Shown: positions 37,191 to 37,806 of the stretch, in pieces
Position numbering within the stretch: position 1 is the stretch's first letter
Layout of the letters: every line of letters begins with the position of its first letter
Sequence record: NC_042128.1
DNA from: Escherichia phage RCS47
DNA: 64,000 nucleotides
Direction: 5' to 3' (one strand)
Notes under the pieces: generated by a model
Told to the model about the DNA's origin: nothing
The model's input: only the letters and a program-made list of their open reading frames with translations
Database searches by the model: none
Translations under genes and position numbers: made by a program

Positions 37191-37442
37191 TTAGTTACCG
37201 CTGATAGCGCGGTTGTAATCATTAACGTTGCGATTCTTCCTGTTAATCCCCATCAGCATCGTTTCTGTATCGAGGATATACGCTGGCAGATCATCGAAAT
37301 ATTCACTGCTAAACTCTGGCATTCTGCACATAAATGCACTTTTGGGGGCAGGGTGGTTAACCTTTGTCGGCGTCGGCGTTAAATTCGCTGATCGACTCCC
37401 GGAGCAACCGCTGAGTGTCAGCAGGAATGCGCTGGCGAACAT
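37191..37442 (-). CDS. small proline-rich outer-membrane lipoprotein (o-spanin-like), embedded out of frame in the 3' part of the upstream gene
   Basis: signal peptide + lipobox LTLSGC, Pro-rich mature part; overlapped architecture. Confidence 0.45.
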   Translation of the reverse strand: MFASAFLLTLSGCSGSRSANLTPTPTKVNHPAPKSAFMCRMPEFSSEYFDDLPAYILDTETMLMGINRKNRNVNDYNRAISGN

Positions 37443-37806
37443 TACCCGCCGCAACCAGTTGTTTCTGAACTTCAGCTTTTCGTTCCATTTGCCTGTCAGC
37501 ATATTTGGCTTGTTCTGATTCATTTTTCACTTCCTGGCTGTGAAAATGTTGCTCTGCTTTGTTCATCGTCTCAATGGTCTGGTTAAGATCCATTATTGAC
37601 TTATCACGTTCCTTAACAGCCTGATCAAGACTGCCAATTTTCTCGATGGCTTGCTTTAGCTGATGACGTTCCCATGCAAACCCAGCACCAACAAGTGCGC
37701 AAATCAGAACAAGAACACCAGTAGCAGCAAGTTTCTCCTTCAAAGACAAAGCTGTTTTTAACGTAGAAAAGAATGACATGTCTTCCTCCTGAAGAAAAAT
37801 TATCAA
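37357..37806 (-). CDS. membrane-anchored periplasmic coiled-coil protein (i-spanin-like)
   Basis: 149 aa; N-terminal TM helix then coiled coil; overlaps the lipoprotein ORF. Confidence 0.45.
   Translation of the reverse strand: MIIFLQEEDMSFFSTLKTALSLKEKLAATGVLVLICALVGAGFAWERHQLKQAIEKIGSLDQAVKERDKSIMDLNQTIETMNKAEQHFHSQEVKNESEQAKYADRQMERKAEVQKQLVAAGNVRQRIPADTQRLLRESISEFNADADKG

Follow-up and report, generated by a model that had tools for sequence, protein, structure and literature searches.

Predicted overlapped spanin genes in P1 and related phages

The closest described relatives of the genes analysed here are the predicted spanin genes of phage P1. The spanin database SpaninDB lists them under the entry 'P1, NC_005856.1, ovl' and assigns them to the spanin family 'P1' (Kongari et al., 2018; PMC6139136). 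In this catalogue, P1 gp064 is an overlapped i-spanin of 140 amino acids (aa), 104 of which are periplasmic; it contains no periplasmic cysteine and carries the comment 'one in TMD'. Its partner, gp063, is an overlapped o-spanin of 110 aa with a mature part of 71 aa, the lipobox TLSG, and one periplasmic cysteine (PMC6139136). The LipoP site of gp063 is placed at 39, and its entry includes the remark 'Too long signal sequence' (PMC6139136). Across the spanin systems surveyed, at least one periplasmic cysteine per pair was present in 507 out of 528 (Kongari et al., 2018).

The P1 genes ppfA and mlp were also treated as partly overlapping putative spanin genes, located in a separate and unlinked operon, by Bednarek et al. 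(2022; PMC9025707), who describe them as recognized from predicted features and cite Summer et al. (2007). In their text, ppfA is named the o-spanin gene and mlp the i-spanin gene, which is the opposite of what the sequences and SpaninDB indicate (PMC9025707). RefSeq labels mlp of P1 as an 'Rz-like spanin', and several GenBank records of P1-like elements name the pair Rz/Rz1. The abstract of the 2007 study by Summer and co-workers is said to include P1 in a group of classic phages for which a search of the kind followed here brought the missing Rz/Rz1 equivalents to light.

The ppfA/mlp pair in a P1-like phage-plasmid

The DNA that we analysed (referred to in the following as the window) is a stretch of 64,000 nucleotides (nt) from Escherichia phage RCS47 (NC_042128.1), and represents a P1-like phage-plasmid (Punavirus). 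When positions 36700-38700 were compared by megablast, matches of 95-99% identity were obtained with punaviruses that include P1, P7, and SJ46, and an alignment placed positions 36659-40482 of the window on positions 62816-66645 of P1 (NC_005856) at 98% DNA identity. A preliminary description had reported a membrane-protein gene that overlaps a lipoprotein gene in this region; both open reading frames (ORFs) are indeed present, and we add the correction that they are read from the minus strand. They correspond to the P1 genes ppfA (P1_gp064) and mlp (P1_gp063), which have the same orientation. PpfA is 100% identical to its P1 counterpart, and Mlp differs from that of P1 by two substitutions (N7S and A32V relative to P1; 98% identical). 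This near-identity of the sequences goes along with a conserved slot between upfB and upfA, beside oriR; in P1, the leftward gene order is upfC, upfB, ppfA, mlp, upfA, followed by oriR/incC, repA, incA, and par. The pair is the already catalogued ppfA/mlp spanin pair of P1, so that the preliminary reading was correct but described something already known.

PpfA, the predicted i-spanin

We evaluated the pair as a two-component spanin by the operational definition given by Summer et al. (2007) and Kongari et al. (2018). The predicted i-spanin gene ppfA (37357..37779, minus strand) encodes a protein of 140 aa and was identified through its ORF, its start context, its membership in phrog_89, and the SpaninDB entry for P1 gp064 (OIS). 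A Shine-Dalgarno (SD) sequence, AGGAGG (37785..37790, minus strand), is separated by 5 nt from the ATG start codon at 37779, and the identical SD is listed in SpaninDB for P1. The preliminary description had assumed a protein of 149 aa. An ORF of this size exists (37357..37806), but it requires a TTG start at 37806, a non-conserved codon situated 5' to the ribosome-binding site GGAGG. In relatives with about 60% identity, the ppfA ORF starts at the ATG found here at 37779, without an upstream extension, and 140 aa is the length of PpfA in both the P1 annotation and SpaninDB. The SD, the relatives, and the annotations of P1 consequently support the shorter length.

The best 19-residue hydrophobic window of PpfA comprises residues 17-35 (LAATGVLVLICALVGAGFA; codons at 37675..37731, minus strand), and its mean Kyte-Doolittle value of 2.35 is the maximum along the protein. 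PpfA thus possesses a single hydrophobic helix at its N-terminus, as is expected of the transmembrane (TM) domain of an i-spanin. The only cysteine of the protein, C27, resides inside this helix, leaving 0 periplasmic cysteines. We infer that PpfA is anchored in the inner membrane as a type II protein, its predicted orientation being N-in/C-out; three lysine residues (K8, K14, and K16) are present in the N-terminal flank of the TM helix.

The periplasmic domain of PpfA consists of about 104 residues and is helical. In a model obtained with AlphaFold2 (AF2) from a 17-sequence alignment (mean pLDDT 69), one helix extends from residue 13 to residue 110, followed by a break at residues 111-119 (AAGNVRQRIP) and a second helix at residues 120-137; the TM helix runs on into the periplasmic domain. 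Between residues 41 and 75, seven of the eight a/d heptad positions are occupied by hydrophobic residues, as compared with 10-15% at the other positions. Hence, the AF2 model and the heptad pattern together reveal the largely helical or coiled-coil periplasmic domain with a central break that characterizes an i-spanin, and the N-terminal TM helix and periplasmic coiled coil proposed in the preliminary description are borne out by these data and by the Kyte-Doolittle profile. Residues 109-140 are the best conserved part of PpfA (78-84% identity vs. 45-53% for residues 37-85), a comparison that is confounded because the same stretch overlaps the region of mlp that encodes the signal peptide and the lipobox.

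Mlp, the predicted o-spanin, and its overlap with PpfA

The predicted o-spanin gene mlp (37191..37523, minus strand; 110 aa as annotated) was recognized through its ORF, its lipobox, its membership in phrog_30284, and the SpaninDB entry for P1 gp063 (OOS). An SD sequence (AGGAAG; 37530..37535, minus strand) that is identical to the one listed in SpaninDB precedes the annotated ATG at 37523 by 6 nt. The lipobox (L37-S38-G39-C40; codons at 37404..37415, minus strand) reads LTLSG in front of the predicted lipidation residue Cys40, whose codon occupies 37406..37404, and a serine is found at position +2. Mlp therefore carries the lipoprotein signal of an o-spanin, with no aspartate at +2, and the +2 rule predicts Lol-dependent sorting of the protein to the outer membrane. 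The lipobox cysteine is kept in divergent loci, where the motif appears as LSGC, LSAC, LNAC, or LNGC.

Mature Mlp, counted from Cys40, comprises 71 aa and contains one further cysteine, C66, which is periplasmic. It is this residue that provides the pair with a periplasmic cysteine, since the sole cysteine of PpfA is buried in the TM domain. Mlp had been portrayed as a proline-rich lipoprotein with the lipobox LSGC; the lipobox is as described, whereas the proline-richness is confined to the N-terminal end of the mature part (six Pro residues in total, five of them among the first 30 residues).

The 3' end of ppfA and the 5' end of mlp overlap out of frame by 167 nt (37357..37523, minus strand), with codon position 1 of mlp coinciding with codon position 2 of ppfA. 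The mlp gene then reaches 166 nt past the ppfA stop codon. The two genes are accordingly adjacent on the same strand in the 'overlapped' architecture, precisely as the preliminary description had it when it spoke of an out-of-frame overlap with a lipoprotein gene extending beyond the end of its partner.

Remote homology to the P2 LysB/LysC proteins

In comparisons with the PHROGs profiles, PpfA matched phrog_89 ('Rz-like spanin'; E = 5e-25), and Mlp matched phrog_30284 ('Rz-like spanin'; E = 2e-77) and, more weakly, phrog_456 (E = 4e-5). The lysis proteins of phage P2 fall into the same groups: LysB matched phrog_89 (6e-61), and LysC matched phrog_456 (2e-31) and also phrog_30284 (5e-4). In a BLASTP comparison, Mlp and P2 LysC shared 37% identity over 68 aa (E = 5e-8), with both the lipobox cysteine and the second cysteine aligned. 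The NCBIfam models for LysB and LysC (TIGR03495 and NF038368) yielded 18 bits against a cut-off of 92.75 and 14 bits against a cut-off of 27, respectively. An hhalign comparison between the PpfA alignment and P2 LysB, the latter represented by a single sequence, was not significant (probability 1%); we consider it uninformative and take the PHROG profile as the informative comparison. Judged by these profile and pairwise matches, ppfA/mlp and P2 lysB/lysC are remote homologs and not equivalogs.

A Pfam scan of PpfA and Mlp returned no spanin family at E <= 1 and gave only sub-threshold coiled-coil noise. BLASTP comparisons with lambda Rz and Rz1 were not significant (E = 0.27 and 0.007), both values being driven by composition or by the signal peptide, and neither phrog_13, to which lambda Rz belongs, nor phrog_3198, to which Rz1 belongs, was matched by PpfA or Mlp. 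With no Pfam match, other PHROGs, and non-significant BLASTP values, an assignment to the lambda Rz/Rz1 sequence family (Pfam Phage_lysis, Rz1) was rejected. Since homology to lambda Rz/Rz1 is not detectable, the term 'Rz/Rz1' refers here to an architecture and a predicted function and not to a sequence family, and it is in the former sense only that the overlapped Rz/Rz1 arrangement claimed at the outset can be upheld. Only P1-like elements were recovered when 50,697 phage records were searched with PpfA by tblastn and when IMG/VR was scanned with a pattern, so that distant relatives in other genome contexts furnish no independent guilt by association.

Genomic neighborhood and expression of the pair

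The lysis genes lydB (3350..3793) and lydA (3790..4119) and a divergently oriented lydC-like holin gene (4180..4464) are located about 33 kb away from ppfA/mlp. The lyz-lydD-lydE endolysin locus is found at 20.0-20.9 kb of P1, a position that falls before the start of the window. The lysis genes of P1 occupy three unlinked places. The suggestion that the lysis functions are dispersed, with the pair lying away from lydA/lydB, is therefore accurate and coincides with the published view (PMC9025707).

The pair is embedded in a tight, co-oriented leftward string of genes, upfC-upfB-ppfA-mlp-upfA. The upfB gene (37819..38664, minus strand) lies directly upstream of ppfA at a distance of 39 nt and overlaps upfC (38616..38900, minus strand), the first gene of the string. 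Positioned 11 nt downstream of mlp is upfA (36787..37179, minus strand), a gene with unassigned function that is followed by a weak terminator-like hairpin (36775..36759). It separates mlp from iterons of the oriR type (about 36528-36632), beyond which repA is found (35568..36452). The location 'next to the replication origin' given in the preliminary description is thus right with respect to the iterons just downstream, but the functionally relevant neighbors are upfC and upfB. UpfC of P1 is a PAAR-like spike-tip protein (PMC9024508; PMC12810830), and cryo-EM identified UpfB as the virion baseplate 'tripod' attached to UpfC (PMC12810830). The tightness of the string and the presence of these virion baseplate genes at its upstream end imply that ppfA and mlp are expressed during lytic growth; we infer that the predicted spanin genes share a transcript with genes for virion parts and would hence be expressed in the lytic phase.

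To inspect the promoters, we used a box for Lpa-dependent late promoters (AAGTKACTW-N4-TANNNT) built on six late promoters from the P1 annotation. Late promoters that were already known, such as LPdar (4166..4148), were picked up by the scan, LPdar at 4166. From ppfA up to 42.9 kb, no canonical Lpa box was detected on the minus strand; a weak match (7/9) with TAAAAT is present about 45 nt before upfC. In the P1 record, two predicted sigma-70 promoters (P1ppfA and P2ppfA) are annotated inside upfB. Matches in a generic scan for sigma-70 promoters and terminators across 36600-39300 were no commoner than in shuffled sequence, and an Rfam scan of the window gave nothing within the region of the pair.

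In a CRISPRi study, knock-down gave EOP values of 0.24/0.19 for mlp and of 1.3/1.2 for ppfA, and both genes were scored as non-essential for plaquing; the score for lambda Rz was essential. Phages that are plated in the standard laboratory manner are known to manage without spanins (PMC9025707), and because of this, the non-essentiality seen with CRISPRi is uninformative with regard to a spanin role of the pair.

Proposed function of PpfA and Mlp

From their predicted features, we consider ppfA and mlp of this P1-like phage-plasmid as putative genes of a two-component spanin with the overlapped architecture, and assign a probability of roughly 85% to this reading. It agrees with all sequence-level criteria that we examined. 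Weighing against it are the CRISPRi scores, the missing Pfam match, the low NCBIfam scores, the non-significant hhalign comparison, the lack of a canonical Lpa promoter upstream, and the length of the annotated Mlp signal peptide. The steps through which such a spanin would act can be modelled on two paradigms, lambda Rz/Rz1 and T4 PseT.3/PseT.2, and on the remote homology to P2 LysB/LysC. Reaching across the periplasm and through the meshes of the peptidoglycan, PpfA in the inner membrane and mature, lipidated Mlp in the outer membrane would bind each other by their C-terminal parts, and the resulting complex would be restrained until the SAR-endolysin Lyz degrades the murein. A conformational change of the complex would then fuse the inner and outer membranes and thereby clear the last barrier to phage release. 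Cys66 of Mlp probably forms a homodimer disulfide.

Two other functions deserve consideration. PpfA and Mlp might be envelope proteins unrelated to lysis that are expressed by the prophage from sigma-70 promoters in a plasmid-maintenance neighborhood; examples would be superinfection-exclusion or host-fitness lipoproteins such as lambda Bor, phi80 Cor, or T5 Llp. We regard this as very unlikely. The pair does adjoin oriR/repA/par and not a lysis cassette, but the co-oriented genes upstream of it encode virion proteins and not lysogeny functions. The P1 annotation predicts sigma-70 promoters only (P1ppfA and P2ppfA) and no Lpa box was found; both partners are nevertheless remotely homologous to P2 LysB/LysC, a pair from a lysis cassette, and a strictly conserved pairing in which the gene of a lipoprotein overlaps that of a type II membrane protein constitutes the spanin signature. 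That both genes are dispensable for plaques in CRISPRi is likewise what would be seen with spanins under standard laboratory plating.

It is highly improbable that the pair cooperates with UpfC and UpfB during entry and not during lysis, in which case it might, for instance, span the envelope and assist in DNA injection or in tail-tip assembly. The compact string with its gaps of 39 nt and 11 nt fits this idea, as does the role of UpfC and UpfB as the tip with which the tail of P1 pierces the membrane. However, neither PpfA nor Mlp is mentioned in the LC-MS proteome of the P1 virion (PMC9024508) or in the cryo-EM study (PMC12810830), and a protein synthesized in one host would have to be packaged in order to work in the envelope of the host that follows; moreover, the homology points to LysB/LysC. 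Taking these possibilities in a broader form, we see only a slim chance that PpfA/Mlp is not solely, or not at all, a lysis spanin, but an envelope-spanning device tied to upfC/upfB or one expressed by the prophage for exclusion or envelope remodeling. If true, such a non-lysis device would explain the distance from the other lysis genes, the lack of a recognizable Lpa promoter, and the non-essentiality in the CRISPRi study.

Substitution patterns in the two overlapping frames

When a lipoprotein-signal filter was applied to all six frames of the 64-kb window, three ORFs passed, as compared with a mean of 0.21 in shuffled sequence. Homologs of PpfA with about 60% identity are present on P1-like contigs from Cronobacter, Klebsiella, and Salmonella. 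Four divergent loci have kept a lipoprotein ORF of 109 aa in the same frame and at the same position, and the 589 nt of the pair can be aligned without gaps between P1 and these four loci, with both ORFs open throughout. In IMG/VR, we found 80 loci that represent 53 distinct sequences and in which both ORFs are kept; in one of the 53 distinct sequences, the mlp frame contains no stop codon within the 589 nt examined.

In the part of the alignment that belongs to mlp only, variability amounts to 0.71 at mlp codon position 3 vs. 0.25 at position 1 and 0.20 at position 2; such a concentration of changes at position 3 past the ppfA stop codon implies that the mlp frame is translated. Conversely, the variability at third positions of ppfA falls from 0.82 in the ppfA-only part to 0.30 over the final 98 nt of the overlap, and overall variability is also lower inside the overlap than in the ppfA-only part. 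These substitution patterns demonstrate purifying selection on both the ppfA and the mlp frame. Gene callers did not recognize the full-length overlapped ORF on the divergent contigs: they reported a 3' fragment of mlp of 46-52 aa on three of them (L003, L006, and L007) and made no call on L004 and L005. The overlapped o-spanin is thus missed by gene callers in P1-like phage-plasmids and is absent from many database entries.

That the lipoprotein ORF arose by chance in an alternative frame and that ppfA is the sole gene might be argued from the short fragments returned by the gene callers and from the absence of dual-coding constraint over the first 23 mlp codons, but the conservation data refute it: the ORF is open and includes the lipobox cysteine in all six compared and in the 53 distinct IMG/VR sequences, the 166 nt that follow the ppfA stop vary mainly at codon position 3, constraint is added from mlp codon 24 on within the overlap, Mlp matches P2 LysC at a BLASTP E-value of 5e-8, and the expected number of lipoprotein-signal ORFs is 0.21 per 64 kb.

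The translational start of mlp

With 39 aa, the annotated signal peptide of Mlp is unusually long. Along mlp codons 1-23, the third positions of ppfA vary at 20 of 23 sites, much as they do in the ppfA-only region (70 of 85 sites; p = 0.76); along mlp codons 24-56, variation is seen at 10 of 33 sites (Fisher p = 3e-5; the sites are not phylogenetically independent). Dual-coding constraint is visible solely from mlp codon 24 on, and not from the annotated ATG. In the same manner, identity between Mlp of the P1 type and of the divergent type is 30% for residues 1-23 and 59-83% thereafter. The window, P1, and all 80 IMG/VR loci carry TTG as codon 24 (37452..37454, minus strand), and each of the four divergent loci carries ATG there; in the BLASTP alignment, Met1 of P2 LysC is aligned to residue 24 of Mlp. 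The ATG in relatives, the boundary of the constraint, and the LysC alignment make this TTG a candidate for the true or an alternative start. What argues against it is that, in all six sequences inspected, the first mlp ATG follows a good SD (AGGAAG or AGGAGG) and no SD is seen in front of codon 24. We checked the 80 near-identical IMG/VR loci for mutants that would separate the two starts; ATG1 and TTG24 were both invariant, which makes these loci uninformative on the choice.

We tentatively propose, at somewhat less than even odds, that the o-spanin starts at codon 24 and would hence possess a canonical lipoprotein signal peptide of 16 residues instead of the annotated 39. Both starts may be used. 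A start at codon 24 would account for the SpaninDB remark about the signal sequence, and this candidate start is one small new point of our analysis. Beyond a correct annotation, the significance of the pair is slight, given that it is catalogued and the dispersal of the lysis genes over three loci is published.

Comparison with known spanin systems

Several traits of the predicted PpfA/Mlp spanin resemble those of lambda Rz/Rz1: a type II membrane protein whose periplasmic domain is helical, a small outer-membrane lipoprotein containing prolines and encoded in the +1 frame, and a predicted role in outer-membrane disruption. The lambda Rz1 gene is wholly embedded in Rz, whereas mlp runs beyond the end of ppfA. 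Rz of lambda contains two periplasmic cysteines (Kongari et al., 2018) and PpfA none. Furthermore, the Rz/Rz1 genes directly follow S and R in lambda, whereas ppfA/mlp do not adjoin holin or endolysin genes.

The P2 lysB/lysC genes are, like ppfA/mlp, overlapped; the two share 146 nt and lysC continues for 145 nt, compared with 167 nt and 166 nt in the pair studied here. P2 LysB and PpfA share phrog_89, and the o-spanins LysC and Mlp cross-match each other's PHROGs. In contrast to PpfA, LysB of P2 contains periplasmic cysteine residues, and lysB/lysC sit inside the lysis cassette Y-K-lysA-lysB-lysC, whereas no linkage with holin and endolysin genes exists for the P1-type pair. The closest correspondence is to ppfA/mlp of P1 itself. 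Although the neighboring repA/incA replicon in the window differs from that of P1, the gene order upfC-upfB-ppfA-mlp-upfA-oriR, the SD sequences, the lipobox, and the overlap are all the same in the two phage-plasmids.

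Start codon of mlp and database annotation of the o-spanin

The signal peptide of Mlp, the predicted o-spanin, comprises 39 amino acids when counted from the annotated mlp start codon. However, three features of the 5' portion of the gene (window 37452-37523, minus strand) set in together at codon 24, namely the constraint imposed by dual coding, sequence conservation and the alignment with LysC, the remotely homologous o-spanin of phage P2. Hence, they suggest that translation may initiate at codon 24, in which case the Mlp precursor would be shorter (87 amino acids) and would possess a canonical 16-amino-acid signal peptide. 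At this codon, the window and P1 have TTG; the relatives with about 60% identity have ATG. What counts against initiation at codon 24 is the strong Shine-Dalgarno sequence preceding the first ATG of mlp.

Automatic gene calling overlooks the overlapped o-spanin gene in the divergent P1-like contigs. On three of them (L003, L006 and L007; 3431/3449..3589), only a 3' fragment of 46-52 amino acids is called, comparable to the 46-amino-acid 'lipoprotein' phrog_15803, and on the two others (L004 and L005) nothing is called at this position. The gene is therefore absent from many database records. In the literature, ppfA has been labelled as the o-spanin gene and mlp as the i-spanin gene (Bednarek et al., 2022; PMC9025707); the transmembrane domain present in the PpfA sequence, the lipobox of Mlp and the entries in SpaninDB (Kongari et al., 2018) all give the opposite assignment.

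Promoter candidate and other elements of the window

No canonical Lpa late-promoter box is present for the upfC-upfB-ppfA-mlp-upfA gene string. The sole candidate found to drive it is a weak late-promoter-like site (AAATAACCT-AAGT-TAAAAT; 38933-38951, minus strand) that precedes the start of upfC by about 45 nt and matches the P1 -22 box at seven of nine positions.

Besides mlp, only two ORFs in the window carry a lipoprotein signal, and neither has a type II membrane protein gene as a partner. One (45509-46336, plus strand; 275 amino acids) belongs to phrog_200 ('lipoprotein'); the other (19880-20401, minus strand; 173 amino acids) has a clear signal peptide and an LLSGC lipobox, although PHROG 1277, into which it falls, carries the label 'DNA methyltransferase'.

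An Rfam match to the sok antitoxin RNA (25602-25775, plus strand) scores 68.5 bits and points to an addiction module of the hok/sok type; the other Rfam matches are the C4 antisense RNA with its a1/b1 targets (20760-20966) and tRNAs at 44210, 44288 and 46364.

Comparison with P1

The lydC region (4170-4580) diverges from P1 and lacks a long blastn match, yet it still encodes a 94-amino-acid holin-family protein (phrog_1527, 1e-35), whose gene lies upstream of lydA and the late promoter LPdar. A segment of about 1 kb (40482-41503) has no equivalent at the matching position of P1, which lies in the dmt region at 66.64 kb, and the sequence on either side is 98-99% identical; this segment looks like an insertion or replacement. 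The repA/incA/incC replicon region (34396-36659) does not align with P1 at the megablast level between flanks of 98-99% identity, and RepA comprises 294 amino acids (phrog_775) versus 286 in P1, findings that suggest a replicon swap relative to P1.
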